Of a stretch of DNA of 42,206 bases, positions 3-39,086 are shown piece by piece. The notes under the pieces were generated by a model. The model saw only the letters and a list, made by a program, of their open reading frames with translations. It had not been told where the DNA came from and made no database searches. The position numbers and the translations under genes were made by a program. The stretch is from Patescibacteria group bacterium (GTDB lineage: Bacteria; Patescibacteriota; Minisyncoccia; UBA6257; HR35). Positions within the stretch are counted from its first letter, which is position 1; every line of letters starts with the position of its first letter. The DNA lies in contig PSMS01000002.1 in NCBI GenBank assembly GCA_040290225.1, forward strand, positions 1 through 42,206, given 5' to 3'.

Positions 3-764
3 AGCTGGGCAATCGGGATCGCTAATTTTATTTTTCTTTTAATAACTTATATCGACACTTTAATTTTAGGTTATTTCAGAAATGTTAAAGAAGTTGGCAT
101 TTATAATTCAGTTGTTAAAATAAATGAAGTTTTATTTGCTATTCCTTTTGCCTTAGCCTCAGCTGCTTTTCCTGCAATTACAAAAAAATTAAAAAATCAA
201 GAAGGGGTTGAAGATGTTTTAGAATTTGGTTTAAAGTTTGCCCTTTTTATTTCTTTACCAATATTTTGGGGTGTCTTTTTTCTTTCAAAAGACTTTATAA
301 ATTTTCTTTACGGAAAAGAATATCTTGATGGTGATTTAGCTTTAAAATTAATAAGCTTTTCAATCCCTTTTAACTTTTTAACCCTAATTTTAATTGATAC
401 TTTAATAGCTTTAGACAAAAGAAAAGAGCTTCTAAAATTTGATTTTCTTACTTTATTGATTAATGTAATTTTGAATATAATTTTTATTCCCTATTTTGGA
501 TTTTTTGCCGCAAGTTTAATAACATCAATTTCTTCATTTATTTTCTTTATTTTTTCCTTTCTCTTAGTAAAAAAATTTATAAAAATTCATTTGACTCATT
601 TAAAAATCCCTAAATATTTGATTATTAGCTTTTTAATAAATTTAATCTTTGTTTTTATTCCTATAAATTTTATTTTAAAAATAATTCTTATTGCTTTAGT
701 TTATTTTGGATTTATGTATTTAATAAAAGAAGAAATAATGATTAGATTTTTAAAAGTTGGTTAA
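3..764 (+). CDS. MOP-superfamily (Wzx/MurJ-like) polysaccharide or lipid-linked oligosaccharide flippase, C-terminal part; 5' end lies outside the window
   Basis: Frame 3 is open from nt 3 (SWAIGIANFIFLLITYIDTLILGYF...) and encodes a multi-TM hydrophobic protein. The track ORF 456..764 is only the part after an internal TTG. Confidence 0.55.
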   Translation, partial: SWAIGIANFIFLLITYIDTLILGYFRNVKEVGIYNSVVKINEVLFAIPFALASAAFPAITKKLKNQEGVEDVLEFGLKFALFISLPIFWGVFFLSKDFINFLYGKEYLDGDLALKLISFSIPFNFLTLILIDTLIALDKRKELLKFDFLTLLINVILNIIFIPYFGFFAASLITSISSFIFFIFSFLLVKKFIKIHLTHLKIPKYLIISFLINLIFVFIPINFILKIILIALVYFGFMYLIKEEIMIRFLKVG

Positions 765-1324
765 ATTTTCTCTAAAATTTCTTTTAAAACTAATTGGGGA
801 TTTTTGTTGGTATCAATAATTGTCCAATTAAATTTTTTAGAATATTTAAGATAATAAAAATGAGACTGTTTTAAAATTTTTTTAGTTTCTAGCTTGTGAG
901 AATCTATTTTTATCCTTTTAAAAATTACTTTTAAAGGAGCGGACAAAACAAAAATTTTATCGGGTTCAAGAAAATCTCTTACCCAAAGATCTATTTCTAA
1001 AAGATTTTTAAGTTTAATAAATTTTTTAAATTTTTTTATTTCGTATTGATAAACAATTGTTGAGGGATATGATCTTTCCAAAATAATATTATTTTTATTT
1101 TTTAGAAGATTTTTTATTTGTTGATAAATTTCCCTTCTTTGAGCCCAAAGCAAAAAAAGTTCTGTAAATGGGTCTATTTTATAATTATTGATGATTTTTC
1201 TTATAAAAGAAAGTGGTCCTTTTAATGGTGGTTCTTTAAAATAATAACCATTTAGTTTTTTAGCTAATTTTTTGGCTATAAGTGTTTTTCCTACCCCGGA
1301 TGTTCCTTCTAATAATATAAACAT
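761..1324 (-). CDS. tmk: thymidylate kinase-like nucleotide kinase
   Basis: N-terminal P-loop FILLEGTSGVGKT, LERSYPSTIVYQ (DRY-like motif) and a lid-like PDKIFVLSAPLKVIFKRIK. The ATG overlaps the rplK stop (TAATG). Confidence 0.6.
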   Translation of the reverse strand: MFILLEGTSGVGKTLIAKKLAKKLNGYYFKEPPLKGPLSFIRKIINNYKIDPFTELFLLWAQRREIYQQIKNLLKNKNNIILERSYPSTIVYQYEIKKFKKFIKLKNLLEIDLWVRDFLEPDKIFVLSAPLKVIFKRIKIDSHKLETKKILKQSHFYYLKYSKKFNWTIIDTNKNPQLVLKEILEKI

Positions 1325-1755
1325 TAATCTTCTACAACAATAACGCCCATACTTTTTGCAACCCCTTCTACTATTTTCATAGCTTTTTCAATATCTTTAG
1401 TATTTAATTCTGATAATTTTTTTTCAGCAATTTCTTTTACTTTTGATTTTGGTAATTTTCCAACTATTTCTCTTCCAGGCTCATGAGCTCCTTTTTCTAT
1501 TTTTAATTCCATTTTTATTAAAGTTGAAATTGGTGGTGTTCCAAGTTTCATTTCATAGCTTCTGTCTTCATAAATAGTAATATAAACAGGAACTTCAATT
1601 CCTTCAAGATCTTTTGTTAATTGATTAAATTTACTGCAAAATTCACCAACATTTATTCCATGAGGAGCAAGAGTTGGTCCTAAAGGAGGAGCCGGAGTTG
1701 CTTTGGCTCCAGGAATAATTAATTTAAGTTTTGTTTTTATCTTTTTCTTTACCAT
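1324..1755 (-). CDS. rplK: 50S ribosomal protein L11
   Basis: PGAKATPAPPLGPTLAPHGINVGEFCSKFN is the L11 signature; 143 aa; sits downstream of nusG. Confidence 0.95.
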   Translation of the reverse strand: MVKKKIKTKLKLIIPGAKATPAPPLGPTLAPHGINVGEFCSKFNQLTKDLEGIEVPVYITIYEDRSYEMKLGTPPISTLIKMELKIEKGAHEPGREIVGKLPKSKVKEIAEKKLSELNTKDIEKAMKIVEGVAKSMGVIVVED

Positions 1756-2300
1756 TAAACTTTTTTTATTTGAAGTAAATCGACCTCAACCGGAGTTTCT
1801 CGACCCATTACTGGAACCAAAACTTTAGCTTTTTGTTTATCAAAATCTATTTCAATTATTTTTCCTTTTAATCCTTTAAATAAACCCTGGATTATCTCAA
1901 CAAGATCTCCTATACTAAAATTAGTTTCAATAACTGGTTCTTGTTGTTGCATTCGTGAAAAAATTTCTTTTATTTCCTCATCACTTATTGATATTGGCGT
2001 TGTTCCAACTCCAATAAAACCTGTTACTTTTGGAGTATTTCTAACAACATACCAAGATCGATCATCAACAATCATATCAACTAAAACATAGCCTGGATAA
2101 ATTTTCTTTTCAACTAACTGTCTTTTTCCATCTTTTATTTCCCAAACTTTTTCTTTAGGAACAATTGCCTGAAAAATTTTATCTTCAAGTCCAAAATCTT
2201 CAGCTCTTTTCATTATTGATTCAGCAACAATTTCTTCAAATCCAACTACTGTATGAATAGCATACCAACCTCTACCTAAGGGTTGGGCCTGTTTTGGCAT
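1755..2300 (-). CDS. nusG: transcription termination/antitermination factor NusG
   Basis: NGN domain (WYAIHTVVGFEE) plus C-terminal KOW (GDLVEIIQGLFKGLKGKIIEID), within secE-nusG-rplK synteny. Confidence 0.93.
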   Translation of the reverse strand: MPKQAQPLGRGWYAIHTVVGFEEIVAESIMKRAEDFGLEDKIFQAIVPKEKVWEIKDGKRQLVEKKIYPGYVLVDMIVDDRSWYVVRNTPKVTGFIGVGTTPISISDEEIKEIFSRMQQQEPVIETNFSIGDLVEIIQGLFKGLKGKIIEIDFDKQKAKVLVPVMGRETPVEVDLLQIKKV

Positions 2301-2302
2301 TT

Positions 2303-2491
2303 TTATTTAATTTTAATAATTAAATAAATCAATAAAGAATCGACCACAGCAAAAAAAATTAAAAAGAAAAGAGAAAAAAGAATAACATTTAATGTTAAAT
2401 CAATAGTTTCTTTTTTAGAAAGCCAATTTATCTTTTTAACCTCAGAAATTGTTTCTTTTAAATATGTTTTTATTTTATCAAAAAAATTCAT
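2303..2491 (-). CDS. secE: preprotein translocase subunit SecE
   Basis: 62 aa with a single C-terminal TM helix, directly upstream of nusG. Confidence 0.8.
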
Positions 2492-5097
2492 TTTTTAAGA
2501 GAAAAAACAAGAGACTCGCCCGCTTTAATATCAATAAACAATTTTTGTCCTGATTTTATTTTTTGAGCCAAAATTTTTTCAGCTAAAGGATTGAGGATAT
2601 ATTTTTGAATTGCTCTTTGAAGTGGTCGAGCCCCATAAAATTGATCAAAGCCCTTTTCAACTAATAATTCCTTAATATTTTCACTAAATTCCACAAAAAT
2701 ATTCTTTTCTTCTAATTTTTGTTTAACTTTATTGAGTTGAAGATCAACAATTTTTTTAAGAACATCTTTAGAAAGAGGTTTAAAAATAATGATATCGTCA
2801 ATTCGATTTAGAAATTCTGGTTTAAAGAAATCTTTTAAACTTGACATTATTTTTTCTTTCAAATCATCCATAGCCTTTTCTTCGGTAGCAAAACCTAAAG
2901 AACCAATTTTTCTAAAGTAATGAGTTCCTATATTTGAAGTCATAATTATAATTGTATTTTTGAAACTTACTGTAAAACCTTTGTTATCTGTCAATCTTCC
3001 ATCATCAAGTATTTGAAGTAAAATATTAAAAACTTCAGGATGGGCTTTTTCAACTTCATCAAATAAAATCAAGCTATAAGGTCGATGTTTAACAGCTTCA
3101 GTTAATTGACCACCCTCTTCATAACCAACATAACCAGGAGGTGAACCAATAAGTTTTGCAACCGAATGTTGTTCCATATATTCTGACATATCAATTCTAA
3201 TCATTGCTTTTTCATCATTAAACATAAATTCAGCTAAAGCTTTAGCTAATTCTGTTTTTCCAACTCCTGTAGGACCTAAAAACAAAAATGAAGCAATAGG
3301 TTTATTTTCATCTTTTAATCCAGCTCGCGCTCTTCTTAAAGCATTAGCTACAGTAACAATAGCTTCTTCTTGACCAATAACTCTTTGGCTTAATATCTCT
3401 TCAGTTTTAAGAAGTTTTTCAGCTTCGCTTTCCATAACTTTTTTAACTGGTATTCCGGTCCAACGAGAAACAACATCAGCTACATCTTCAGCAGTAACAT
3501 AATCTCTAATAAAAGAAAATTTGAATTTTTTAAAAGAATTTTCTAAATCTTTTAATTCTTTTTGAACTTGAGGAATTTCTCCATATAAAATTTCAGCCAC
3601 TCGAGTTAAATCTCCTATTCTTTCAGCATTAGTAGCTTCTAAATTTAAAAGATCTAATTTTCTCTTTAATTCTTGGTATTTATCTTTATATTTTTTTTCA
3701 GTTTGCCATTTATTAAAAAGTTTTTCCTCTTCTTTCTTAAGTTGTTTTATTTTATTCTCTAATTGCTTTATTTTTGTTTTTTGAATTGATCCTTCTCTGA
3801 TTAAAGCTTCTCTTTCAATTTCTAATTTTCTTATTTCTTTTCTTACATCTTCTAATTCTTGGGGCATTGATTCAATATGAATCTTTAAGGTAGCACAGGC
3901 TTCATCTAAAACATCAATTGCTTTATCGGGCAAAAATCGATTAGTAATATATCTATTAGAAAGTTTAACAGCAGCAACAATTGCTTCATCTAAAATTTTC
4001 ACTCCATGGTGAAGTTCGTATTTTTCTCTTAAACCTCTTAAAATAGCTATAGCATCTTCTACTGATGGTTCATTAACTAAAACCGGTTGAAATCTTCGAG
4101 CAAAAGCTGGATCTTTTTCAATATAAAGTTTATAATCTCTAAAAGTTGTGGCTCCAATTATTTGAAAATCTCCACGAGTCAAAACAGGTTTTAATAAATT
4201 AGCCGCATCAATAGCTCCTTCAGCAGCTCCAGCTCCTATTAAATTATGCATCTCATCAACAAAAAGAATAAATTTCCCAGAATTTAATTGAAATTCTCTT
4301 ATGATTGTTTTTAATCTTTCCTCAAACTCTCCTCTAAATTTTGTTCCTGCAATTAAAGCTCCTAAATCTAAAGATAAAATTATTTTATCTTTTAAAGATT
4401 CAGGAACATTTCCACTAACTATTCTTTGAGCTAAACCTTCAACAATAGCTGTTTTCCCTACACCAGCTTCACCAATTAAAACTGGATTATTTTTTGTCCT
4501 TCGAGAAAGAATTTGAATAATTCTTCTTATTTCTGCATCCCTTCCAATAATTGGATCTAGTTTATTTTTCTTAGCTAATTCATTTAAATTAACACTATAT
4601 TTTTCTAGAGCTTTGTATTTGGCCTCAGAACTTTCATCAACAACTTTTTGCCCCTTTCTTAAAGAACTAATAATCGAAATAACTTTGTCAGTTGTTAAAC
4701 CAAATCTTTCTAAAATTAATCTGGCAACTGTCCTTATTTCCGTAAGTGAGATTAAAAGATGTTCAAGAGAAACATATTCGTCTTGCATTTTTTTTGCTAA
4801 ATATGAAGCCCTATCTAAAATCTGTGCTAATTCATTACTAACTAAAGGAGTAGTAAATTCTTCGACAGAAAGAGTTATAGGAATTTTTTCCAAATTGTCT
4901 TCAACAACATTTAAAACTACTTGAGGATTAATTTTAGTTTCTTTAAAAATATCATTGATTAATTCTTCATTTAAAATTAAAATACTCCATAAAAGATGAA
5001 GGGCTTTAATTTCTTGATGATGAAGATCAACAGCTTTTTCCTGAGCTCTAGTCAAAGCTTCTTGGGCTTTTAAGGTAAATTTATTAAATGGAAACAT
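2488..5097 (-). CDS. clpB: ATP-dependent chaperone ClpB
   Basis: Two AAA+ modules (GEAGVGKT and GPTGVGKT) separated by a long coiled-coil middle domain, with a Clp N repeat. The ATG is at 5095-5097; the track start at 5100 is TTG. The stop overlaps the secE ATG (ATGA). Confidence 0.95.
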
Positions 5098-5105
5098 CAA
5101 TATTT

Positions 5106-5114
5106 ATTATAACA
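5106..5114 (-). promoter_or_regulatory. putative extended -10 promoter TGTTATAAT, 8 nt upstream of the clpB ATG
   Basis: The minus strand reads aaaatatgTTATAATaaatattgATG. The box starts 8 nt after the 3' end of tRNA-Val. Confidence 0.45.
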
Positions 5115-5192: not shown

Positions 5193-5657
5193 TTATTTTT
5201 CATAAAAAACTTCAATTTTTAAATTAGCTTTTATACCATAACCAAGATTTATTGGAATTTCAAACTTACCTTCTTGAGTAATTTTTGATTGAAGTTCAAT
5301 TTGTCCTTTGCTTAAATTTATTCCATTTTCTTTAAGGAATTTCAAAATTTTTTCTCGAGTAAGGGGTGAGACAACTTTTTCTTTTAATTTCTTTAAAGTA
5401 AATCTAAAAACAAGATCTTCAATTTTTCTTTTTAACTCCTCAGCCAATTTTTCTCTTTCTTGAATTTTTGTAGTAAGAAGTAAAGGTTTTAATTCAGTTT
5501 CTAATCTTTCTTTAGTGGCTAAAGTAACCTTTCCTAAGGAAAGTAAATATCGATAATAACCAGGTTTTATTTCAACAACTTCTCCTCTCTGGCCCAAATT
5601 GGGAATATCTTCAAGTAAAAGAACTGGTAATTTTTTTCTTTTTTTTCTTTTAGGCAT
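5193..5657 (-). CDS. rplI: 50S ribosomal protein L9
   Basis: The N-terminal domain LLLEDIPNLGQRGEVVEIKPGYYRYLL matches the L9 pattern; 154 aa. Confidence 0.9.
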   Translation of the reverse strand: MPKRKKRKKLPVLLLEDIPNLGQRGEVVEIKPGYYRYLLSLGKVTLATKERLETELKPLLLTTKIQEREKLAEELKRKIEDLVFRFTLKKLKEKVVSPLTREKILKFLKENGINLSKGQIELQSKITQEGKFEIPINLGYGIKANLKIEVFYEK

Positions 5658-10731: not shown

Positions 10732-10736
10732 ATTTG

Positions 10737-10810
10737 TGGGCGGGAGAGGACTCGAACCTCTAACCTTCGGCACGTCAAGCCGACGCTCTAACCAGTTGAG
10801 CTACCCGCCC
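10737..10810 (-). tRNA. tRNA-Val (anticodon GAC), no encoded CCA
   Basis: Cloverleaf: GGGCGGG/TA/GCTC-AACTGGTTA-GAGC/G/TCGGC-TTGACGT-GCCGA/AGGTT/AGAGG-TTCGAGT-CCTCT/CCCGCCC/A. Confidence 0.9.
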
Positions 10811-11180
10811 CTTTATTAAAATATTCTTTTATTTTATTTACTAAATCATCTAAAGAAACTTTTGCTTTTACTAAATATTCAATAGCTCCAAGTTTTAAAC
10901 CTTTTTCTATATCTTCTGGTTGACCCAACTGAGAAACTATTACAATCGGAACAGTTTTTAAATTTGGATCCTTGATTATTTCTTCTAATAAAGTAAAACC
11001 AGTTTTTTTAGGTAAGATTATATCTAAAATTATTAAATCTGGTAATTCTGTTAATATTTTTTGAAATCCTTCTTCACCATTTAGAGCACTTATTACTTCA
11101 AATCCTTCATTTTTTAATCTTTTCTCTAAAGCTAATCTTAAAAAATTATCGTCTTCAATTATTAAAATTTTTTTCGGCAT
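10788..11180 (-). CDS. stand-alone CheY-like response regulator receiver domain
   Basis: KILIIEDD, phospho-acceptor LIILDIILP, IVIVSQ and YLVKA receiver motifs. The ATG at 11178-11180 is preferred over the track start at 11222, which lies in the rRNA processing stem. The last 23 nt, including the TAG stop, lie inside tRNA-Val. Confidence 0.85.
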   Translation of the reverse strand: MPKKILIIEDDNFLRLALEKRLKNEGFEVISALNGEEGFQKILTELPDLIILDIILPKKTGFTLLEEIIKDPNLKTVPIVIVSQLGQPEDIEKGLKLGAIEYLVKAKVSLDDLVNKIKEYFNKGAGSSTG

Positions 11181-11187
11181 TAAGTTA

Positions 11188-11196
11188 ATTATAACA
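11188..11196 (-). promoter_or_regulatory. putative extended -10 promoter TGTTATAAT, 7 nt upstream of the response-regulator ATG
   Basis: The minus strand reads attTTGTTATAATtaacttaATG, between the 16S processing stem and the ATG. Confidence 0.45.
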
Positions 11197-11199
11197 AAA

Positions 11200-11247
11200 T
11201 AGAATTTTAATTCTCTAGGCATTTTTGGAAATAACCAAGCAGAAGTT
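11200..11247 (-). repeat. 3' arm of the 16S rRNA precursor processing helix (inverted repeat partner of 12803..12849)
   Basis: The reverse complement of 11200..11247 matches 12803..12849, apart from one G-U position and one 1-nt bulge. Confidence 0.85.
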
Positions 11248-11275
11248 CAGCTAAATTAAAGATATAAAGATTTTA

Positions 11276-12802
<1,527 letters not shown>

Positions 12803-12849
12803 AACTTCTGCTTAGTTATTTCCAAAAAGCCTAGAGAATTAAAATTCTA
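12803..12849 (-). repeat. 5' arm of the 16S rRNA precursor processing helix
   Basis: See 11200..11247. It begins immediately 5' of the mature 16S sequence. Confidence 0.85.
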
Positions 12850-12903
12850 ATTTTGATTTTAAGAGAACTTTAAAAACATCAAATTCAACAAAATTCACCT
12901 AAT

Positions 12904-12933
12904 ATTTTAACCTAAAATAAATTTTTTTGTCAA
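12904..12933 (-). promoter_or_regulatory. putative 16S rRNA promoter: TTGACA, 18-nt spacer, TAAAAT
   Basis: The minus strand reads ataatatTTGACAaaaaaatttattttaggtTAAAATatt. It has a perfect -35 (12928..12933) and lies about 50 nt upstream of the processing stem. Confidence 0.5.
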
Positions 12934-12940
12934 TATTATC

Positions 12941-13384
12941 TTATCGCTGAATTGGAGAAGTTGGTGTTGAAGTTGGAGAGGAAGTTGGGGTTGGTCTTGG
13001 GGTTGGAGATGGAAGAACTTGAGATTTCATTTTAATAATATCAACGATTGGAGAGTTATCTTCTAAATAAGTCCAAAAAAGAATTTTAGACTGATTTAAA
13101 AGGATATAATTTTTTGGCTTCCAAACAGCATCACTAAATCTTTGTAATGAAATATTCCCATCATTACCAACATTAACAAAAACAGGTGATTTCAATTTGT
13201 TCCTTGGGAAAAAAGAAATTTCTCCAAAATAAATATTACCATTCTCTAAAACGACCATAGCATATTTTGGTTTTAAAACATTACTAAAAATAAAAACCAA
13301 ACTTAAACCTCCCAAAAAACCTATTAACGACCATAAAAAGAAAGTAAAAAATCTGTTTTGAAGAAATTTTCTTAAAACATTCAT
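12941..13384 (-). CDS. hypothetical single-pass membrane protein with Pro/Thr/Ser-rich C-terminal tail
   Basis: One N-terminal TM (FFTFFLWSLIGFLGGLSLVFIF) and the tail PSPTPRPTPTSSPTSTPTSP. The start overlaps the aspS stop (ATGA). Confidence 0.6.
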   Translation of the reverse strand: MNVLRKFLQNRFFTFFLWSLIGFLGGLSLVFIFSNVLKPKYAMVVLENGNIYFGEISFFPRNKLKSPVFVNVGNDGNISLQRFSDAVWKPKNYILLNQSKILFWTYLEDNSPIVDIIKMKSQVLPSPTPRPTPTSSPTSTPTSPIQR

Positions 13385-14802
13385 TTTTGAATATCTTTTT
13401 TAATTTCGAGACCTAATTCATTTAATTGTTCTTTTGAAATTTCACTTGGAGAATTCATTATTAAATCTCTTCCCTCACCAGTTTTAGGAAAAGCAATCAC
13501 TTCTCTTATATTAGGTTCATCTTCTAAAATCATCATTGTTCTATCAATACCAGGAGCAATTCCGCCATGAGGAGGAACACCATAAGAAAAAGCTTCAATT
13601 AAATGTCCAAATTTTTCAATTATCTCCTCCTTTTTATTTCCCATAACTTCAAAAACTTTAATTAAAACATCTGAATCGGTTGTTCTTATACTTCCACCAC
13701 CAATTTCATAACCATTACAAACAAAATCATATTGTTCGCTCAGTAAAATTTCGGGAGATGTTTCTAAAGCTTTTAGAAGTTCTTCTTTATCTTTTCTTCC
13801 ATCGGGTAATTTAGGTTGAGTAAATGGATGATGAACTGCATCCCATCTTTTTTCTGTCTCTTTCCATTCAAACATTGGAAAATCAATAATAAAAACAAAA
13901 GCAAGCTCATTAGGATTATTTGGATCTTTTCTTAAATCTGGTTTGTCGCTTCCGTAAATTCTAATTGCTTCTTCATAAGAAAGTCTTGGGAATGGTTTGT
14001 AAGTAATTTTTTTATGAGGATAAAGGGTTTCAACCATTTCAGTAAACATTTCTTCAACAAGATTTAAGATGTCATCACGAGTAATAAAACTCATTTCTAT
14101 ATCTAATTGAGTAAATTCTGGTTGACGATCTCCTCTCGGATCTTCATCACGAAGACATCGAGCTATTTGAAAATACCTTTCAAAACCAGCAACCATAAGT
14201 AGTTGTTTGTATTGTTGTGGTGATTGAGGTAAGGCATAAAATTTCCCTTTATAAATTCTACTTGGGACAACAAAATCTCTAGCTCCTTCTGGAGTTGATT
14301 TGGTAAGAAGAGGGGTTTCAATTTCAATAAAACCTCTCAAAGAAAGATAATTTCTAAAAAATGAAATAACTTTTTGACGATGAATTAAATTTTTTTGAAG
14401 TCTTCTTCTTCTCAAATCCAAATATCGATATTTTAATCTCAGGGCTTCATCAATCTCATAACCAGAAGTAGAAATATCAAAAGGTAGGGTTTTAGCCCTA
14501 GAAAGAATTTCCAATTCTTTTAATTCAACTTCAACCTCTCCTGTTTCTAAATCAGTATTAATTGAATGAAATGGTCTTTCTTTAACTATGCCCTTAATTT
14601 TTACAACATATTCAGGCTTAATTTCTTTAGCCAAAGAAAAATATTCATTTTCTTGATTAATAACAATTTGAACAATACCTGATCTATCTCTTAAATCTAA
14701 AAAAACAACCTTACCATGGTCACGAATGTTGTCAACAAATCCGAAAAGTTCAACCTCTTCATTAATTAGGTTTTTACATTCAATATTCCAAATTTTTTTC
14801 AT
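13381..14802 (-). CDS. aspS: aspartate--tRNA ligase, bacterial-type core lacking the GAD insertion domain
   Basis: OB-fold N-domain, FYALPQSPQQYKQLLM, CLRDEDPRGDRQPEFTQLDIEMSF and GGIAPGIDR motifs. The ATG at 14800-14802 (MKKIWNIE) is preferred; the track start at 14838 is TTG. Confidence 0.93.
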   Translation of the reverse strand: MKKIWNIECKNLINEEVELFGFVDNIRDHGKVVFLDLRDRSGIVQIVINQENEYFSLAKEIKPEYVVKIKGIVKERPFHSINTDLETGEVEVELKELEILSRAKTLPFDISTSGYEIDEALRLKYRYLDLRRRRLQKNLIHRQKVISFFRNYLSLRGFIEIETPLLTKSTPEGARDFVVPSRIYKGKFYALPQSPQQYKQLLMVAGFERYFQIARCLRDEDPRGDRQPEFTQLDIEMSFITRDDILNLVEEMFTEMVETLYPHKKITYKPFPRLSYEEAIRIYGSDKPDLRKDPNNPNELAFVFIIDFPMFEWKETEKRWDAVHHPFTQPKLPDGRKDKEELLKALETSPEILLSEQYDFVCNGYEIGGGSIRTTDSDVLIKVFEVMGNKKEEIIEKFGHLIEAFSYGVPPHGGIAPGIDRTMMILEDEPNIREVIAFPKTGEGRDLIMNSPSEISKEQLNELGLEIKKDIQK

Positions 14803-14809
14803 TGAAGAA

Positions 14810-14815
14810 ATTATA
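14810..14815 (-). promoter_or_regulatory. putative -10 box TATAAT, 7 nt upstream of the aspS ATG
   Basis: The minus strand reads agttTTATAATttcttcaATG. Confidence 0.45.
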
Positions 14816-15989: not shown

Positions 15990-15995
15990 TATAAT
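15990..15995 (+). promoter_or_regulatory. putative -10 box TATAAT, 8 nt upstream of the gatA ATG
   Basis: The sequence tttaatTTATAATaaattgtaATG comes directly after the thiI stop. Confidence 0.35.
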
Positions 15996-16003
15996 AAATT
16001 GTA

Positions 16004-17401
16004 ATGGATTTTAGAAATTTATCCGCCTCTCAATTTAAAAATCTTATTTTAAAAAATAATCCAAAAGAAGTTTACGAAAGTTATTTAAGTTGGCTCAAAA
16101 AAGAAGACGAAAACGTAAAAGGTTTTATAACTTTTACAGAAGAATTGGTCTTTCAAACTTTAGAAGATTTAAAAAATAAAAGTAAAGATCTGCCTTTATA
16201 TGGAGTACCGATAGCTATTAAAGATAATATTTTAGTTAAAGGTTTCAAATGCACAGCTGGATCAAAAATTTTAGAAAATTACATTGCTCCTTATGATGCT
16301 ACTGTTATTAAAAAATTAAAAGAAGCTGGAGCGGTTATTGTTGGTAAAACAAATCTCGATGAGTTTGCTATGGGATCTTCAACAGAAAACTCAGCTTTCT
16401 TTCCAACTTATAATCCATTTGACAAAGAAAGGGTTCCTGGTGGTTCTTCAGGAGGATCAGCTGCTCTGGTCGGCGCTGGTTTAGTGCCAATTTCTTTAGG
16501 TTCAGATACAGGAGGGTCTATCAGACAACCTGCGGGTTTTTGCGGAATTTTCGGATTAAAACCAACTTATTCATCTGTTTCCAGATATGGCTTAATAGCT
16601 ATGGCTTCTTCTTTAGATGTTATTGGTCCTTTTGCTCGAGATTTGGAAGATTTAAAAACAGTATTTAGAATTATAAGAGGTAAAGATAAAATGGATAGTA
16701 CAACTCAAGTTTATCAAGAAAAAATCAAAGAAGTTAAAAAAATAGGAGTGATTGAAGAGGTTTTTGGTTTAGGTTTAGATGAACCTACTCGAGCCTCTTT
16801 TGAAAAATTCTTAGATAATTTAAAAAACTATCAAATTAAAAAAATTTCTTTACCATCATTACCTTATGCTCTTTCAGTCTATTATCTTATAATGACAGCT
16901 GAAGTAAGTTCTAATTTAGCTCGTTATGACGGTATTCGTTATGGTTATAGCTTTCCCACTAACGATTTATTAGAAAAATATTTTCAGTCAAGAGAAATTG
17001 GTTTTGGCAAAGAAGTAAAAAGAAGAATTTTATTAGGAACTTTTGTTTTATCTCAGGGCTATTATGAAGCTTATTATAAAAAAGCCTTAAGGGTAAGAAG
17101 ATTCATTTATAATGATTTTCAAAGAGCTTTTAAAGAAGTTGATTTGATTTTAATGCCGACATCACCAACAATACCCTTCAGACTTGGAGAAAAAACAACT
17201 GATCCTCTTTCAATGTATTTGTCAGATATTTTTACTGTTCCTATTAATTTAGCTTATTTACCAGGACTTTCTTTCAATATTGATTTTGTTGAGATTGATA
17301 ACAAAAAATTACCAATAGGTGCTCAGATTGTTAGTAATTTATTCGAAGAAGAGACAATTTTTAAGTTTTTAGAAGAAATTGGTTATACAAAATGCCAGTA
17401 A
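16004..17401 (+). CDS. gatA: Asp-tRNA(Asn)/Glu-tRNA(Gln) amidotransferase subunit A
   Basis: Amidase signature GGSSGGSAALV...GSDTGGSIRQPA. Confidence 0.93.
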   Translation: MDFRNLSASQFKNLILKNNPKEVYESYLSWLKKEDENVKGFITFTEELVFQTLEDLKNKSKDLPLYGVPIAIKDNILVKGFKCTAGSKILENYIAPYDATVIKKLKEAGAVIVGKTNLDEFAMGSSTENSAFFPTYNPFDKERVPGGSSGGSAALVGAGLVPISLGSDTGGSIRQPAGFCGIFGLKPTYSSVSRYGLIAMASSLDVIGPFARDLEDLKTVFRIIRGKDKMDSTTQVYQEKIKEVKKIGVIEEVFGLGLDEPTRASFEKFLDNLKNYQIKKISLPSLPYALSVYYLIMTAEVSSNLARYDGIRYGYSFPTNDLLEKYFQSREIGFGKEVKRRILLGTFVLSQGYYEAYYKKALRVRRFIYNDFQRAFKEVDLILMPTSPTIPFRLGEKTTDPLSMYLSDIFTVPINLAYLPGLSFNIDFVEIDNKKLPIGAQIVSNLFEEETIFKFLEEIGYTKCQ

Positions 17402-19239: not shown

Positions 19240-20383
19240 AAAATTTTTTGAGCATTTCAATTACATAATCAATATCTTCTTTGGAAGTTTCTAAACCAAA
19301 TGAAAATCTTAAACTTCTTTTTGCTCTTTCAGGATCATTAAAAATTTCTTTAACCATATAACTTGGTTCAGCTGATCGCGATTTACAAGCAGTTCCTGGA
19401 GAAATATAAATTTTATTAAGATCTAAATATAAAAAAATATCTTGGGCTAATTTTGTTGGAAAATAAATATTCAAAATTTTAGGGCTCGATTCTTCTAAGT
19501 TTGTATTAATTTCAATTGGTAAATTATTTTTTTTAATTTTTTCAATAAAATAGTCTCTAATTGCCTTTAAATGGTTTACATTTTTTTCTTTTTCTTCAAA
19601 AGCTAATTCCATTGCTTTAGCAAAGCCAACAATCAAAGGTACAGCTTCAGTTCCTCCTCTTAAGTCATATTCATGACCACTTCCAGAAATCAATCTCATT
19701 AAAGGTGTATTCGCTTTTACATATAAACAAGCTATTCCCTTAGGACCATAAATTTTATGAGAAGAAAGAGTCATTAAATCGCATTTTAAATTATTAACAT
19801 TTAAATCTTCAGTCAAACCAGCTTGAGCAGCATCAATATGAAAGTAAATTTTTCTTTTAAACTTTTCTAAAAACTCTCCTATTTCCTTAATTTTTTGACG
19901 ATTACCCAGTTCACTATTAATATAATGCAAAGTAATTAAAAGTGTGTTTTCTTTTATTGATTCTTTTATTTTTTCTAAACTTATTAAACCATTCATTTCG
20001 GGCTTGAGATAAGTTGTTTCAATTATCTCTAGGCCTTCTAAATCAGCTAAGGTATCGAGAACCGAAGGATGTTCAATAGTTGAAGAAATTACATGAATTT
20101 TTTTATAGCCCTTTAAAAAATAAAAATAAAAAATTAAACCCTTAATAGCTAAATTATTAGCTTCAGTTGAAGAAGCAGTAAAAATAATTTCTTTTAATTC
20201 ATTGGCTTTTAAAATTTCTTTTATTTTATTTCTTGATTCATCAATTGCTTTTAAAGCTTTTTGTCCAAAAGAATGTAGGCTGACAGGATTAGCAAAAATT
20301 TCTCGAAAATAAGGATTCATAGCTTCAAAAACCTCCTTTCTTAAAGGAGTTGTTGCGGCGTAATCTAGATAAACTTCTTTCAT
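19232..20383 (-). CDS. cysteine desulfurase (NifS/IscS-like class V aminotransferase)
   Basis: PLP lysine motif SSHKIYGPKG and an active-site Cys loop SPGTACKS. Confidence 0.88.
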   Translation of the reverse strand: MKEVYLDYAATTPLRKEVFEAMNPYFREIFANPVSLHSFGQKALKAIDESRNKIKEILKANELKEIIFTASSTEANNLAIKGLIFYFYFLKGYKKIHVISSTIEHPSVLDTLADLEGLEIIETTYLKPEMNGLISLEKIKESIKENTLLITLHYINSELGNRQKIKEIGEFLEKFKRKIYFHIDAAQAGLTEDLNVNNLKCDLMTLSSHKIYGPKGIACLYVKANTPLMRLISGSGHEYDLRGGTEAVPLIVGFAKAMELAFEEKEKNVNHLKAIRDYFIEKIKKNNLPIEINTNLEESSPKILNIYFPTKLAQDIFLYLDLNKIYISPGTACKSRSAEPSYMVKEIFNDPERAKRSLRFSFGLETSKEDIDYVIEMLKKFLI

Positions 20384-20390
20384 AATTTAT

Positions 20391-20396
20391 ATTATA
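20391..20396 (-). promoter_or_regulatory. putative -10 box TATAAT, 7 nt upstream of the desulfurase ATG
   Basis: The minus strand reads gatttTATAATataaattATG, just after the ftsA stop. Confidence 0.35.
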
Positions 20397-25718: not shown

Positions 25719-25903
25719 GTCGAAGTAGGAAATTGGATAGTTGAAGTATTAGCTTCTTCAGGTAAAACTTCTTCAGGAATTTCTGAAGGAGAATAAATTT
25801 GAGGATATTTTTGATAAGCTTTCATATTTAACAAACTAAAAAAAATTAAAAAACTTAAAATAACAATCCCAATAAGAATTCGGTTTAATTTATTAACAGT
25901 CAT
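25712..25903 (-). CDS. hypothetical small membrane protein
   Basis: 63 aa with one TM (ILIGIVILSFLIFFSLL). The ATG overlaps the infB stop (ATGA). Confidence 0.4.
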   Translation of the reverse strand: MTVNKLNRILIGIVILSFLIFFSLLNMKAYQKYPQIYSPSEIPEEVLPEEANTSTIQFPTSTY

Positions 25904-27369
25904 TCTATTCTTATTATATCATTAATTTCAATATCTTTTGTAGTTTCAATTATTAAACCACAAAGTTCATTTTCTTTTACTTCTTCAACTAGTATTTTAT
26001 TTTTTTCTAAACTTATTATTTTACCTCTTCCCATAATTTCGCCATTTCTTAAAATTATAACTTTGTCTTTTAATTTTATTCTTCCTAAAACTACTCTTCC
26101 TCCTATTGTTTTTTTAGTTTTTGTTTTGCTAAAAGTAGCTAAAACTTCTAATTCTCCTTTTGGCAATAATTCTTTTATTTCTTCTCCCTTAATCAAACTT
26201 TCTAATTTTTCTTCTAATTCATAAATAACATTGCTTTCTATAAATTTAATGTTTAAATTTTTGATATGGTCTAAAATATTTTTGAAATTTTTAACATTAA
26301 AACTTAAAATTATAGCTCCAAATTCTTTAGCTAATTCAACATCTTCTAAACTTATTGGTCCTAAATCTTGTTTTATTATTTTGATATTAGTATTTAATTT
26401 TTGTGATAGTTTTAAAAAAATATTTTCTAAAGCCTCTAAAGATCCTAAATGATCAGCTCTAACTATCAAAACATAATCTCCTTTTTCTTCAGTTTTAACA
26501 AATATATGTTTCCTTATATATGTTTTTTCTTTTTCTTCTAATTCTTTTCTTATATTTTCAATATCTTTTTCTTGCCCAATTTTAAATTCTTCACCAGCTG
26601 AAGGTAAAACATCAAAATTCCCAACTAAAATAGGTTTAGAAGGATAAGCTTCATTTATTTTTCTTCCTAAATCATCTTCCATAATTTTAATTTTAGCTAA
26701 AGATGACTGAGTAATTAAAAAATCTCCTAATTTAACTACTCCTTCAGTGACAATTAAACTTGCCAAAATACCTCTTTTGGGATCTTTAAATGCTTCTAAA
26801 ATATAACCTCTGCCTAAACCATTTATTTTTGTTTTCATTTCATAAATATCTCTCAATAAAATTATTGTTTCTAATAAATCATCAATTCCCTCCCCTGTTT
26901 TGGCAGAAACATTAATAGTTGGAATTTCACCTCCCCATTTTTCAGGAATTACTTCTAATTCAACTAATTGAGCTAAAACTTTTTCTGGATCCGCATCCTT
27001 TTTATCAATTTTATTTAAAGCAATAATAAATGGAATTTTAAAAATTTTTAAATATTCTAAACTTTCTTTTGTTTGCTCTTTAACTCCTTCATCAGCAGCA
27101 ATAACTAAAATTCCGATATCAGCAAATTTAGCTCCTCTTTGTCTTAACATAGCAAAAGCCTCGTGACCAGGAGTATCAATGAAAGTCATTTTTTCTCCTT
27201 TATATTCAATTTCATAAGCTCCTATTTTTTGAGTAATTCCTCCAGCTTCTTTTAAGGCAACATTGGTTTTTCTTATATAATCCAACAAAGATGTTTTTCC
27301 ATGATCTACATGTCCTAAAACAACTATAATTGGTGGTTTTTTTACCCAATCCATAAAAATTTTCAACAT
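25900..27369 (-). CDS. infB: translation initiation factor IF-2, core only (no N-terminal region)
   Basis: The P-loop GHVDHGKT starts at residue 19. DTPGHEAF and NKID motifs are followed by the beta-barrel and C1/C2 regions; 489 aa. Confidence 0.93.
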   Translation of the reverse strand: MLKIFMDWVKKPPIIVVLGHVDHGKTSLLDYIRKTNVALKEAGGITQKIGAYEIEYKGEKMTFIDTPGHEAFAMLRQRGAKFADIGILVIAADEGVKEQTKESLEYLKIFKIPFIIALNKIDKKDADPEKVLAQLVELEVIPEKWGGEIPTINVSAKTGEGIDDLLETIILLRDIYEMKTKINGLGRGYILEAFKDPKRGILASLIVTEGVVKLGDFLITQSSLAKIKIMEDDLGRKINEAYPSKPILVGNFDVLPSAGEEFKIGQEKDIENIRKELEEKEKTYIRKHIFVKTEEKGDYVLIVRADHLGSLEALENIFLKLSQKLNTNIKIIKQDLGPISLEDVELAKEFGAIILSFNVKNFKNILDHIKNLNIKFIESNVIYELEEKLESLIKGEEIKELLPKGELEVLATFSKTKTKKTIGGRVVLGRIKLKDKVIILRNGEIMGRGKIISLEKNKILVEEVKENELCGLIIETTKDIEINDIIRIE

Positions 27370-27709: not shown

Positions 27710-28528
27710 TTAAAAAGGTAAAAATAAATTAAAATAAATCTTAGTTATTATTTCTCCTAAAATAAAAGTAGCTAAAATTCCTATAAAGAAAAAAGGAATA
27801 AAAGGAATTGGGGTTTTCAAATTTTTATTTTTCAAAAAAAGATAAAAACCATATAAAGAACCAAAAAAAGAAGAAAAAATTAAAATTAATAAGGCATCGC
27901 CTGGTTTAAAAAATAATCCCATAACAAAAACAGTTTCAACATCTCCAAAACCTAAACCCCTTCCTTTAGTAATTAAAAAAATTAAAAGAAAAATAGAAGT
28001 CAAAATTAAAGAAGAGATAATTGTCTCGGGTAAATTAAAAAAGAAGAAATAATTAAAAAGATAAGAAAAGTCTCTAATAGGAATTTTTAAAAAATAATGG
28101 TAAAGATTAAAAATAATCCCAACTATTAAAAGAAAAATTAAAAAACTTGTCTCAACTAAATAAGTATCAAGATCATAAAGGGCCAAAATAAATAAAACTG
28201 ATAAAAGAATAAAATAAAAAATAAATTCGATAAAATTTGGAAAACTTTTCCAGGGCAAAAAAATTAAACTTAAATAAAAAACAAAAAAACCAGTAATTAA
28301 TTCAGTTAAAGGATATCTTAAAGAAATTTTTTTTTGACAATTAAGACATTTTCCTTTTTGCAAAATAAAACTTAAAATTGGAATCAATTCTTTCAATTTT
28401 AAAATTTTTCCACAATAAGGGCATTTTGAACGATTAAAAAGAAAATTTTCATTTTTAACCAAACGAAAAGCAATATTATTTAAAAAAGAACCCCAAAAAA
28501 GGCCAAAAAAGAAAAATAACAAAGGCAT
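27710..28528 (-). CDS. pilD: type IV prepilin peptidase / N-methyltransferase (A24 family)
   Basis: N-terminal CPYC...CLNC zinc motif followed by YPLTEL. It is polytopic, with Asp boxes ALYDLD and GFGDVE. Confidence 0.85.
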   Translation of the reverse strand: MPLLFFFFGLFWGSFLNNIAFRLVKNENFLFNRSKCPYCGKILKLKELIPILSFILQKGKCLNCQKKISLRYPLTELITGFFVFYLSLIFLPWKSFPNFIEFIFYFILLSVLFILALYDLDTYLVETSFLIFLLIVGIIFNLYHYFLKIPIRDFSYLFNYFFFFNLPETIISSLILTSIFLLIFLITKGRGLGFGDVETVFVMGLFFKPGDALLILIFSSFFGSLYGFYLFLKNKNLKTPIPFIPFFFIGILATFILGEIITKIYFNLFLPF

Positions 28529-28529
28529 C

Positions 28530-29735
28530 TTAAAGGTTTTGAATAATTTTAGTTAGATTCAAAAGAGGGATCAAAAGAGATGCTTCGAGTAAAACAAGGC
28601 CGCCTCCTAAAATTAAAATTAAAAATGGCTGAAGAGCTTCTCCTAAATTAGCAAATTGACTTTCAACCATTTCTGTGTAAAACCCTAAAATCGTTAAAAC
28701 AATTTCTGTCATCTGTCCTGTTCTTTCTGCTGTTTTCATAGCCTCAATAACAATTCGGGAAAAAACATGAGGAAATTCTTCCATTGCTCCACTAAATGGT
28801 TTTCCTTTTTTAACCTCTTCAATCATTAAACCTAAAGCTTCTTCATAAACAGGATGTTTTATGCTATTTTTAATAATATCCAAAGCTTCAACTAAAGGTA
28901 CTCCACCTCGAGTTAAATAATAAAGTGATTCTAAAAATTGAGCGATATAAATATTTTTAAATAATGGGCCTATAACAGGCAAAATATTAATAAAACTAAA
29001 AAAATAACCTTTACCCTCTCTTGTTTGAGAATATTTATAAAAATAATAAATTGCTCCAGCTAAAATAATTGCTGAATAGATTCCGTAATTAATTAAAAAA
29101 TTAGAAAAGTAAATAAAAATTTGAGTAATTAAGGGTAAAGGAACATTGGCTTCTTTAAATAAACCAGCAATTCGAGGAATAACCGAAGTGGCTAAAACAA
29201 TAATTGTTACTAAAAACATTGCTAAAACAATTGCTGGATAAATTAAAGCCTGAATAGCTTTGTTTCTGAATTTAATTTGATTTTCCAAATGTTTAGCAAT
29301 ATAATTCATTGTTTCATCTAAAGTACCAACTGATTCTCCTATTTTTACCATTCCAACAAAATAATCATCAAAAATATCAGGAAACCTTGAAAGAGAACTA
29401 GAAAATGGAACACCAGAAATTAAATCCTGATAAATTTGAAATAAAACATCTCTAAAATAAGCATTAGGAGAAGTTTCGGCTAAAGATTTAATAGCTTCAT
29501 CAAGTGGAGTTTGGGCTTTAATTAAATAAGCTAGTTGTCTTGAAAATAAATAAATATCTTTTAAATTTGGTTTTCTTAATAAAAACTCAAACAATTTAAT
29601 TCTTGCTTCAGCTAAATAGGTAACAAGCAATTCTTGTTCTTGAAGTAATTTTAAAGCTTCCTCTTTGGATGAAGCAGTAATAACTCCTTCTTTTAATTCT
29701 CCTTGTCGAGTAAAGGCTTTAAATTTAAATTTCAT
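28530..29735 (-). CDS. pilC: type IV pilus platform protein PilC (GspF family)
   Basis: Two GspF-type repeats, three TM segments, 401 aa. Confidence 0.9.
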   Translation of the reverse strand: MKFKFKAFTRQGELKEGVITASSKEEALKLLQEQELLVTYLAEARIKLFEFLLRKPNLKDIYLFSRQLAYLIKAQTPLDEAIKSLAETSPNAYFRDVLFQIYQDLISGVPFSSSLSRFPDIFDDYFVGMVKIGESVGTLDETMNYIAKHLENQIKFRNKAIQALIYPAIVLAMFLVTIIVLATSVIPRIAGLFKEANVPLPLITQIFIYFSNFLINYGIYSAIILAGAIYYFYKYSQTREGKGYFFSFINILPVIGPLFKNIYIAQFLESLYYLTRGGVPLVEALDIIKNSIKHPVYEEALGLMIEEVKKGKPFSGAMEEFPHVFSRIVIEAMKTAERTGQMTEIVLTILGFYTEMVESQFANLGEALQPFLILILGGGLVLLEASLLIPLLNLTKIIQNL

Positions 29736-30793
29736 GACTCAAGTAAATATTTTAATCTTGATGGATTTAAGCTAAATTCTAAGGCTGTTTCTAAAGTTAT
29801 ATGGCCTAACTGAACCAAGGTTGCTAATGATCTATCTAAAGAAATCATTCCTTCATGAAGATGGGTATCAATAACGCTATCAATTTGATAAACTTTATTT
29901 TCTCTAATTAAGTTTCTGACAGCATTGTTAGCAATTAAAATTTCACAAGCAGGAATTCTTCCTCCTTGAATTCTAGGAACAAGTCTTAGAGAAATAATAC
30001 CTACTAATGTAGATGCCAATTGAAGCCTAGCTTGATTTTTTTGTGTTTCTGGTAAAACATCAATAATTCTATCTATTGATTGAGCCGCAGAATTTGTATG
30101 TAAAGTAGCTAAAACCAAATGACCAGTTTCAGCAGCTGTCAAAGCTATTGAAATTGATAAAGCATCCCTTAACTCACCAATCATAATTACATCGGGATCT
30201 TCTCTTAAAGCAGATTTTAAAGCCCGGTGCCAACTTGGGGAATGAGTTGGAATTTCTCTTTGAGAAATAACTGATTTATCTGGTGTAAAGATATATTCGA
30301 TTGGTTCTTCAATGGTAATAATATGAGCTTGACGAAAATGATTGATCTCATCAATTAAAGCAGCTAAGGTCGTTGATTTCCCCATCCCTGCTGGTCCTGC
30401 CACTAAAATAAAACCTTGTCTTCTATTGACAAATTCATTTAAAATTGGAGGTAAATTTAATTCTTCAATACTTTTTATTTCATTAGGAATAAGTCTGAAA
30501 GCACCTGCCCAACCATTAAATTGTAAATAAATATTAGCTCGGAATCTATAAGTCTCGTTTAAAAAGAAAGAAAAATCAATATCTTTTAATTTTTTCAATC
30601 GAGATTTAAGCTCTTCATCTAATAAAGAAAAAAGCATTTTTTCTGTATCTTCATTAGTTAGAATTTCGTATTGGGTTAAAGGAATCAAATTACCATCTTT
30701 TCTCATTATAGGAAAACTACCAGGTAAAATATGTAAATCGGAAGCATTCTGATTAACAATAAATTTAAAAATTTCTTCTAATCTTTTATCCAT
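29732..30793 (-). CDS. pilT: type IV pilus retraction ATPase PilT
   Basis: Walker A GPAGMGKST, IITIEEPIEY, GHLVLATLHT and the PilT-type AVRNLIRE motif. Confidence 0.9.
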   Translation of the reverse strand: MDKRLEEIFKFIVNQNASDLHILPGSFPIMRKDGNLIPLTQYEILTNEDTEKMLFSLLDEELKSRLKKLKDIDFSFFLNETYRFRANIYLQFNGWAGAFRLIPNEIKSIEELNLPPILNEFVNRRQGFILVAGPAGMGKSTTLAALIDEINHFRQAHIITIEEPIEYIFTPDKSVISQREIPTHSPSWHRALKSALREDPDVIMIGELRDALSISIALTAAETGHLVLATLHTNSAAQSIDRIIDVLPETQKNQARLQLASTLVGIISLRLVPRIQGGRIPACEILIANNAVRNLIRENKVYQIDSVIDTHLHEGMISLDRSLATLVQLGHITLETALEFSLNPSRLKYLLES

Positions 30794-32503: not shown

Positions 32504-32504
32504 T

Positions 32505-32780
32505 TTATTGTGGATTACTAAATAAACTTGGTCTTCCTAAATCAACTTCAGAGATTTGAGGAAATGGTTTAATAATTGTTCCTAAGTTTTTAAGAGCCTC
32601 GTTTCCTTTTTGAAAATTATAATCTTTTATAAAATTAAGCTGACTCTGAATTTTTTGTAAAATTGGTGAAGGTTCGTATTCTTTTTTAAATATTCCTGCT
32701 TTCCAAAAACCTAAAAATATTAAACCAAAAACACTAATTAAAAAAAATAAAATTACAGTTATAATACTCGTTTTATTCAT
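32505..32780 (-). CDS. hypothetical small membrane-anchored protein in the pilus operon
   Basis: 91 aa with one N-terminal TM. It overlaps the pilO stop by 8 nt and ends 1 nt before the pilB ATG. No family recognised. Confidence 0.5.
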   Translation of the reverse strand: MNKTSIITVILFFLISVFGLIFLGFWKAGIFKKEYEPSPILQKIQSQLNFIKDYNFQKGNEALKNLGTIIKPFPQISEVDLGRPSLFSNPQ

Positions 32781-33351
32781 TTTTTTCTTCTTTAGGAGAA
32801 GTTATCAGATAATAACTTTCGACCTCTATTTCTGATTTTAGACCTCCTTTTTCACCTAAATTTAAATTTAATTTATTTATTTTCATAAATCTAGTGGATT
32901 TTTCAATAGCTGAAATAAATTCTTGAATTTTACTTAAGTCAACATTTTCAAAAGAAAGAGAAAAATTGATTGTTCCTACAGGTAAAATGTTTGTATTAAT
33001 TAAATATTTTTCTTTTTTCTCGATATTAAAATTTGCCCCAGGAAAAATTCCTAAACCCAATTCTTGATAAGTTGTATGAAAGAAAAAAATTATTTCTTTA
33101 ATTTTTGGTTCTCGAGGAAGCCAAGCTTCTAAAGTTTCTTTTCTTGCCATTAAAGAAGATATTGCTCTCTCACCTTTTAATTGATTGACAATATTTTCTA
33201 ATTGGTTTAAGTCTCTTTCTTTATTGTTTAATTCATTTAATTTTTGAGCCAATTCAATAGTTTTTTTGTATTCCGGAATCAATTGATTTATAAAAACAAC
33301 TAAAATTATAACTATTAAAATTAATGGTAAGAGGTTAATAAAAAATCTCAT
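32773..33351 (-). CDS. pilO: PilO-like pilus alignment protein
   Basis: N-terminal TM, a coiled coil, then an alpha/beta domain. It sits after pilN. Confidence 0.6.
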   Translation of the reverse strand: MRFFINLLPLILIVIILVVFINQLIPEYKKTIELAQKLNELNNKERDLNQLENIVNQLKGERAISSLMARKETLEAWLPREPKIKEIIFFFHTTYQELGLGIFPGANFNIEKKEKYLINTNILPVGTINFSLSFENVDLSKIQEFISAIEKSTRFMKINKLNLNLGEKGGLKSEIEVESYYLITSPKEEKNE

Positions 33352-33863: not shown

Positions 33864-33873
33864 TAAAAAAATT

Positions 33874-36277: not shown

Positions 36278-39077
<2,800 letters not shown>

Positions 39078-39080
39078 TTA

Positions 39081-39086
39081 ATTATA
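39081..39086 (-). promoter_or_regulatory. putative -10 box TATAAT, 6 nt upstream of the ligA ATG
   Basis: The minus strand reads gactattTTATAATtaaattATG, in the 19-nt gap after the pilX-like gene. Confidence 0.4.

Follow-up and report, generated by a model that had tools for sequence, protein, structure and literature searches.

The stretch of DNA analyzed here, called the window throughout, is 42,206 nucleotides long (contig PSMS01000002.1 of assembly GCA_040290225.1, a Patescibacteria group bacterium). It has a GC content of ~26% and contains a single island of 46-51% GC. The minus strand carries a 16S rRNA gene with a GC content of 56%, as opposed to ~26% for the genome, and without insertions. 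The gene is unlinked to a 23S rRNA gene (window positions 10736..12933); a response-regulator gene and then tRNA-Val(GAC) lie downstream of it on that strand. The response-regulator ORF (stop codon 10788..10790) and the 5' end of tRNA-Val(GAC) (10736..10810) overlap by 23 nt on this strand. No database record was found for the exact protein encoded by the ORF at 12941..13384, which adjoins the 16S rRNA gene. The features of the window are collected in Table 1.

Table 1. Features of the window relevant to 16S rRNA maturation and translation initiation
Feature	Position	Strand	Evidence and remarks
secE-nusG-rplK with tmk immediately after; rplA (uL1) missing from its usual place	761..2491	-	Pfam; gene calls on contig L036; secE translation
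clpB start, putatively near-leaderless: TGT-TATAAT 5111..5106, ATG 5097	5095..5111	-	sequence
Pre-16S processing stem, 3' arm (core 11247..11210)	11175..11262	-	duplex folding with 5' leader, -76.6 kcal/mol
Response-regulator start, putatively leaderless-type: TGT-TATAAT 11193..11188, 7-nt spacer, ATG 11180	11178..11193	-	promoter scan and sequence
AGCUGA motif in 3' trailer, kept in most clade members	11247..11252	-	alignment of clade loci
Single-stranded 3' tail GACCAAAUCUGUUUAAAA, clade-conserved	11271..11288	-	covariance alignment and comparison of clade tails
Full-length 16S rRNA gene, 1527 nt	11276..12802	-	RF00177, 1441 bits, model positions 1-1533, no truncation
AAUCU at anti-SD core positions (CCUCC, E. 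coli 1535-1539)	11279..11283	-	covariance-model alignment and sequence
Helix 45, UAUCGCUAGC-GGAA-GCUGGCGAUG, GGAA loop, intact	11289..11312	-	covariance-model alignment and sequence
Pre-16S processing stem, 5' leader arm	12796..12900	-	same duplex folding, -76.6 kcal/mol
Likely 16S promoter TTGACA-18-TAAAAT, 11/12 matches	12904..12933	-	promoter scan and sequence
Class II aaRS (Lys/Asn/Asp type) start, putatively leaderless-type: TATAAT 14815..14810, 7-nt spacer, ATG 14802	14800..14815	-	promoter scan and sequence
gatA start, putatively near-leaderless: TATAAT 15990..15995, ATG 16004	15990..16006	+	sequence
Class V aminotransferase start, putatively leaderless-type: TATAAT 20396..20391, ATG 20383	20381..20396	-	sequence
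ligA start, putatively leaderless-type: TATAAT 39086..39081, ATG 39074	39072..39086	-	sequence

The flanks of the 16S rRNA gene are predicted to pair into a strong pre-16S processing stem, with ~28 nt left single-stranded between helix 45 and the stem. Transcription from the likely 16S promoter, which is of the sigma-70 type, would start at the base of this stem. The AGCUGA motif of the trailer is located just before the main arm, within an internal loop at the stem base, and may be a recognition signal in pre-rRNA processing. The order of 16S rRNA gene then response regulator is also found in the related loci L004, L011, L013, L019, and L026. By these sequence features the gene looks functional, as the 16S rRNA gene of a bacterium of the Parcubacteria/Paceibacteria (CPR, Minisyncoccota).

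The minus strand from 11290 to 11271 reads TGGACCAAATCTGTTTAAAA. The bacterial SSU covariance model sets UGGACCAAAUCUGUU against the consensus UGGAUCACCUCCUUU. In the 3' block of the RF00177 alignment, UGGACCAAAUCUGUU is aligned to the consensus ugGAUcACCUCCUUu with the top posterior probability at each position, and a focused covariance-model run on the 3' end placed GUCGUAACAAGGUAUCGCUAGCGGAAGCUGGCGAUGGACCAAAUCUGUU opposite the consensus GUCGUAaCAAGGuagCcguaccGGAAggugcgGcugGAUcACCUCCUUu, again with maximal posterior probability throughout. The 3' end of the model, equivalent to E. coli position 1542, falls at 11276. A sequence search for CCTCC found no occurrence in the whole 16S rRNA gene or in 11170..11300. 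The original prediction, made from the letters of this DNA, was that the tail physically lacks the anti-Shine-Dalgarno (anti-SD) core, and the covariance model reproduces it exactly in both coordinates and sequence. Its further statements that no CCUCC lies between helix 45 and the processing arm, and that this arm, which pairs with the leader, is found at 11247, are likewise upheld. Helix 45 had been described as a 9-bp helix with a GGAA loop. The loop and the intactness of the helix stand, but the covariance model gives 10 base pairs, a trivial difference.

Related 16S sequences were retrieved in two scans. The first used a helix-45 pattern with the tail left unspecified, covered 185,579 species with one genome per species, and returned 35 loci. 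Seventeen of these have 16S sequences 78-95% identical to that of the window; all 17 lack CCUCC, with the tail GGACCAAWUCUKUUUAAAA. The other 18, at ≤75% identity (Microgenomates-like, Berkelbacteria, TM6, and similar), all read GGAUCACCUCCUUUCUAAGGAG. CCUCC is also retained in ABY1 and Microgenomatia. The second scan used a pattern upstream of helix 45 on metagenome contigs, with neither helix nor tail constrained. It added 23 further contigs of the clade (≥78% identity), every one without CCUCC; its hits at ≤77% identity were from other phyla, mostly with CCUCC. Over both scans CCUCC is present in 0 of 40 related 16S sequences (78-95% identity), which come from public genomes and metagenomes of independent projects, and all retrieved sequences of ≤77% identity belong to other lineages, most of them with CCUCC. 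The complete 680-kb genome of a relative, AP024681.1, gave a single hit, without an anti-SD. The comparison with CPR relatives that the original prediction had proposed is therefore unanimous (40/40 without CCUCC), and no rrs copy carrying CCUCC was found among these sequences.

Among 28 distinct tails of the clade, no variation was seen at A1534, U1537, C1538, and U1542 (numbered as in E. coli), and the core reads AWUCU. Conservation extends to about position 1547, ~5 nt past the E. coli 3' end. Beyond the tail, the spacer is saturated with changes up to the conserved AGCUGA that precedes the processing stem. The sequences of ≥78% identity stem from records labeled Paceibacter, Paceibacterota, Parcubacteria, Minisyncoccia, or Patescibacteria, or from mislabeled metagenome-assembled genomes (MAGs), an assignment made by identity only and without a formal phylogeny, and they bear out the original placement of the genome among the CPR bacteria. 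No retrieved sequence exceeds about 90.5% identity to the window organism over the full-length 16S. Because 40 related 16S sequences also lack CCUCC, AAUCU is not an assembly artefact; the sequence comparison indicates that anti-SD loss is a fixed, lineage-wide trait.

Several of the retrieved records merit separate mention. Several public MAG records are mislabeled, as judged from the titles of L004, L001, L018, L021, L023, and L032. L004, a MAG labeled 'Thermodesulfobacteriota bacterium', has a 16S sequence 90.5% identical to the Paceibacteria 16S of the window. Records labeled 'uncultured Pseudomonadales' carry canonical-tail 16S sequences, only 68-75% identical to that of the window, whose helix 45, tail, and trailer match loci labeled Pacebacteria or Woesebacteria. 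Partly degenerate anti-SD cores (AUAUCUCC, ACAUCUCC, and AUACCUCUUUU) were seen in metagenome 16S sequences outside the clade (L049, L056, L058, L113, L117, L120, L137, and L154) and are probably Bacteroidota-type variants. In L134 the 3' half of helix 45 is apparently absent, owing perhaps to a deletion or to faulty assembly.

The regions upstream of start codons were analyzed in a clade sample of 181 non-redundant genes, drawn from about 237 kb around rRNA loci and not from whole genomes. The gene caller was deliberately simple: a start was the first ATG in any non-overlapping ORF of ≥100 amino acids, and starts called this way are crude. GGAG, GAGG, or AGGA was present at -20..-4 in 7 of the 181 genes (3.9%) and at -60..-44 in 8 of 181 (4.4%), showing no enrichment. 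The same pipeline applied to 52 genes of a 50-kb region of E. coli gave SD tetramers in 62% of genes at -20..-4 against 4% at -60..-44. The earlier observation that starts in the window lack SD tracts thus extends to the clade sample. AGGA tracts do occur, at background rate only (e.g. before the ATG at 21587), and G is depleted near clade starts (0.09 versus 0.136).

Loci that keep CCUCC had been intended as the SD-positive control (L001, L003, L005, L007, L012, L014, L017, L018, L020-L024, L027, L031-L033, and L035, comprising Microgenomates-like CPR, Berkelbacteria, and TM6). E. coli was used instead because these canonical-tail loci showed no SD enrichment either (12% versus 12%, 74 genes). 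This small sample of 74 genes hints that disuse of the SD preceded the physical loss of the anti-SD.

What is enriched upstream of clade starts resembles the -10 box of a sigma-70 promoter. Within 20 nt of starts, the 6-mers with the strongest enrichment are GTTATA, AAAGAT, TTTATA, TTATAA, and TATAAT. TANAAT hexamers starting at -18..-12 number 52 in the 181 genes, compared with 11.3 predicted by the flanking positions (p = 1e-18) and with 19.7 predicted by position-specific composition, a conservative control (p = 1e-9). They are nearly absent at -11..-6, which is equally AT-rich. The boxes often read TGnTATAAT: the TG of an extended -10 element is present on 10 of the 52, a 6-fold excess over a background of 2.9%. 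Within the window, a perfect TATAAT lies 12-17 nt before the ATG of nine genes, namely clpB, the response regulator, the class II aaRS at 14802, gatA, HtrA, the aminotransferase, pilM, ligA, and an ORF at 42006. The best -10 cases have -35 boxes at 17-18 nt, as at the class II aaRS start (ATG 14802), where a TTGATT -35 box is found 17 nt upstream.

A promoter scan of the whole region gave 85 hits versus 83 in shuffled sequence, no excess, as chance -10-like hexamers are common in AT-rich DNA. The informative output is therefore limited to the top hits and the statistics on position, and the best scan hits in the window end 7 nt 5' of start ATGs. With a discriminator of 6-8 nt, the geometry of the -10 box would make transcription begin at the AUG or a few nucleotides 5' of it. 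This promoter geometry suggests leaderless or near-leaderless starts for these genes.

The boxes also bear on gene annotation. For the longest-ORF starts at 11222, 14838, 14866, 27704, 34935, and 5100, several of which are TTG or GTG, an in-frame ATG with a correctly spaced TATAAT or TAAAAT lies 3-42 nt downstream, and these longest-ORF starts are probably wrong. The genes with a longest-ORF start upstream of a properly boxed ATG are lysS, the response regulator, gatC, pilM, clpB, and thiI. A gene caller guided by ribosome-binding-site motifs will put starts in the wrong place in Paceibacteria genomes, which makes its start calls unreliable.

Since the -10 box is confined to about 30-35% of candidate operon-leading genes, there must be a further route that does not depend on the SD. 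In the clade sample, 44 genes start within 15 nt of the same-strand gene before them; the gap is often -8, -4, -1, or 0, and A is dominant at -1 and -3 in these closely spaced genes.

We consider it likely that in this lineage the 30S subunit acts without an SD helix on mRNAs that contain neither an SD nor a compensating motif, that starts are leaderless or coupled, and that the anti-SD has decayed. Specifically, the replacement of CCUCC by AWUCU throughout the lineage would leave the 30S subunit unable to form the Shine-Dalgarno helix. Promoter-proximal genes would be expressed from leaderless or near-leaderless mRNAs (leaders of 0 to about 5 nt), with the ribosome binding directly to their 5'-terminal AUG. 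Downstream genes of operons would depend on coupling or on termination-reinitiation where stop and start codons overlap or abut, at junctions rich in A, poor in G, and presumably unstructured. Decay of the anti-SD most likely came after SD pairing had fallen out of use, and the derived tail would since have been under purifying selection for another role, such as 3'-end maturation, the binding of an assembly factor, or contacts with ribosomal proteins.

The replaced tail is itself conserved, which implies a constraint other than SD pairing. A bolder version of the mechanism holds that the tail (CCAAWUCUKUUUAAAA) is more than a remnant of a decayed anti-SD and has taken on a new, lineage-specific role; Paceibacteria would then be an entire bacterial class whose translation is obligately SD-free and mostly leaderless and co-evolved with the loss of uL1. 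We regard this version as unlikely, although conceivable. On it, the tail might be the docking site of an assembly factor, a maturation factor, or an extension of a ribosomal protein, or might act in 70S initiation on leaderless mRNAs.

A different account of the upstream sequences is that the mRNAs are leadered and initiate independently of SD pairing, as in Bacteroidota, with unstructured, A-rich 5' untranslated regions and a Kozak-like A at -3 and -1 assisting capture by the 30S subunit and bS1; the TATAAT-like hexamers would then be A/U-rich enhancers or an effect of composition and not promoters. The enrichment of A at -3 (0.60), at -1 (0.62), and at -13..-8 is in keeping with this account, as are the depletion of G near starts, the restriction of a correctly spaced -10 box to about a third of genes, and the A-rich signal that Flavobacteria show without using the SD (PMC3457768). 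Nevertheless, the hexamers pile up sharply, filling -18..-12 and leaving -11..-6 empty, and they do so above the expectation from position-specific composition. Enhancers or composition would also leave unexplained the 6-fold excess of the TGn extension and the -35 elements at 17-18 nt from the best boxes. As a replacement for leaderless initiation, the leadered route, including its reading of the hexamers, is improbable in our judgment; it probably works beside leaderless starts, for internal genes.

A switch of pairing partners, in which the derived tail CCAAAUCUGUUUAAAA would pair with a co-evolved A/U-rich 'SD' such as AGAUUU or the self-complementary UUUAAA, is very improbable. The clade-wide conservation of the derived tail and the frequency of UUUAAA-type strings just 5' of ATGs speak for such a switch. 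Against it, 6-mers complementary to the tail showed no positional enrichment in the clade sample (27 hits, spread evenly over -60..-4). The duplex energy between the upstream region and the tail of the same genome was -2.31 kcal/mol at -22..-3, no better than far from starts (-2.74) or in shuffled sequence (-2.27), whereas the same calculation for the E. coli tail gave a strong signal (-6.61 near starts, -2.98 far from them, and -4.84 shuffled). A/U pairings of the kind proposed would contribute just about -2 kcal/mol. In the survey of Amin et al. (2018, PMC6107228), a variant anti-SD was in no case matched by a variant SD. The k-mer position and duplex-energy tests on the 181 genes thus reject an alternative anti-SD/SD pairing, and an SD-like motif complementary to the actual tail, the outcome that would have counted against the original prediction, is not enriched. 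Self-complementarity between tail and leader through UUUAAA was also rejected: a minor TTTAAA cluster exists at -7/-6 (9/51), with no pairing energy above shuffled controls.

It is scarcely credible that AAUCU stems from mis-assembly, a chimera, or an rrs pseudogene and that the true 16S has CCUCC: the window is from a metagenome-type assembly, the independent ENA contig L036 (found via rplK) ends inside the response-regulator gene before reaching the 16S and gives no second read of the tail, and the exact tail plus spacer had no match in JGI metagenomes, where the organism itself was not re-sampled, but the covariance-model match is full-length and high-scoring with helix 45 intact, the promoter and the processing stem are intact, the same tail recurs in the 40 related sequences from independent projects, relatives keep the gene order, and neighboring genes lack SD motifs.

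Loss of the anti-SD in a subgroup of Parcubacteria is already published. Tsurumaki et al. (2022, RNA 28:1041, PMC9297842) detected CCTCCT in only 48% of Parcubacteria, the loss affecting a subgroup that overlaps the group lacking uL1 and is itself mostly without uL1. Paceibacteria also lack rplA and der according to a 2025 study (PMC12641178). Like the subgroup of Tsurumaki et al., the window organism belongs by 16S to the same lineage and lacks CCUCCU. It may also be without uL1, rplK being followed by tmk. It is not different in kind from that subgroup but is a distinct further member. The expectation in the original prediction that CCUCC is physically lost less often than it simply goes unused holds, with the qualification that such loss has been reported for this subgroup (PMC9297842). 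That study gives the detection frequency of the motif only; the conserved derived tail and what replaces the SD are not described there.

At the uL1 locus of the window, rplK and tmk share a 1-nt stop/start overlap (TAATG), and the usual rplA-rplJ-rplL is absent. The independent ENA contig L036 likewise has tmk, and not rplA, after rplK. In the window and this contig the order fits the rplA-lacking group of Paceibacteria. The gene for bL9 is present at 5193..5657. Absence of uL30 is a CPR-wide trait; the rpsE-rpmD-rplO region lies outside the window.

Outside the CPR, lineages without an anti-SD include Flavobacteriia (Chryseobacterium, Riemerella, and Blattabacterium), Candidatus Carsonella, and hemotropic mycoplasmas (PMC3457768; PMC6107228; PMC10783764, category iv). 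Organisms without an anti-SD also lack SD motifs and show no compensating motif (Amin 2018, PMC6107228; Lim 2012, PMC3457768). These lineages share with the window a degenerate anti-SD core, the lack of SD enrichment, and the lack of a compensating complementary motif. Their losses are independent and in different phyla. Their tails are typically one or two bases off (e.g. AUAUCUCC), whereas three of the five core bases are changed in the window; and they have an A-rich upstream signal where the window clade has a -10 box at a fixed distance from the start. Bacteroidota keep CCUCC, which is reportedly masked by bS21, bS18, and bS6 (Jha et al. 2021). They resemble the window organism in largely SD-independent translation and in A-rich, G-poor start contexts, but in Bacteroidota CCUCC is sequestered whereas in the window the sequence itself is gone.

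Loss of the anti-SD alongside leaderless mRNAs, as proposed for the window, is found in mammalian mitochondria, whose 12S rRNA has no anti-SD, and in Nanoarchaeia. Mitochondrial and archaeal machineries differ from that of the window, and leaderless status is here derived from promoter geometry only. Actinobacteria and Deinococcus are rich in leaderless mRNAs but, unlike the window organism, keep the anti-SD and still use the SD on leadered genes. In the full-text literature covered, which is incomplete and not proof of novelty, we found no paper linking this CPR/Patescibacteria lineage to leaderless translation.

Pairing of SD and anti-SD is the textbook mechanism by which bacteria start translation, and lineages with physical loss of the anti-SD are rare natural experiments. 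As the Parcubacteria case is already published, the window is no new kind of exception, but it does provide an example that is clean and well controlled. The additions made here are modest: a conserved derived tail, and a statistically strong promoter-at-start signature as the likely replacement of the SD. The latter makes SD replacement in Paceibacteria directly testable with metatranscriptomes.

Two further sets of genes in the window deserve comment. IF2, encoded at 25900..27369 on the minus strand, has only 489 amino acids; its GTPase domain begins at residue 14, and the N-terminal domains of E. coli and Bacillus IF2 are absent. The short IF2 may have a bearing on initiation that is SD-free or leaderless, or may be no more than a case of CPR protein shrinkage. 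Type IV pilus clusters are typical of CPR episymbionts, and one is found on the minus strand at 27710..34935 and 39597..40181, with genes for a prepilin peptidase, PilC, PilT, PilB, and PilM, three small ORFs that have no annotation, and a pilin-like gene whose product carries a methylation motif at its N terminus.
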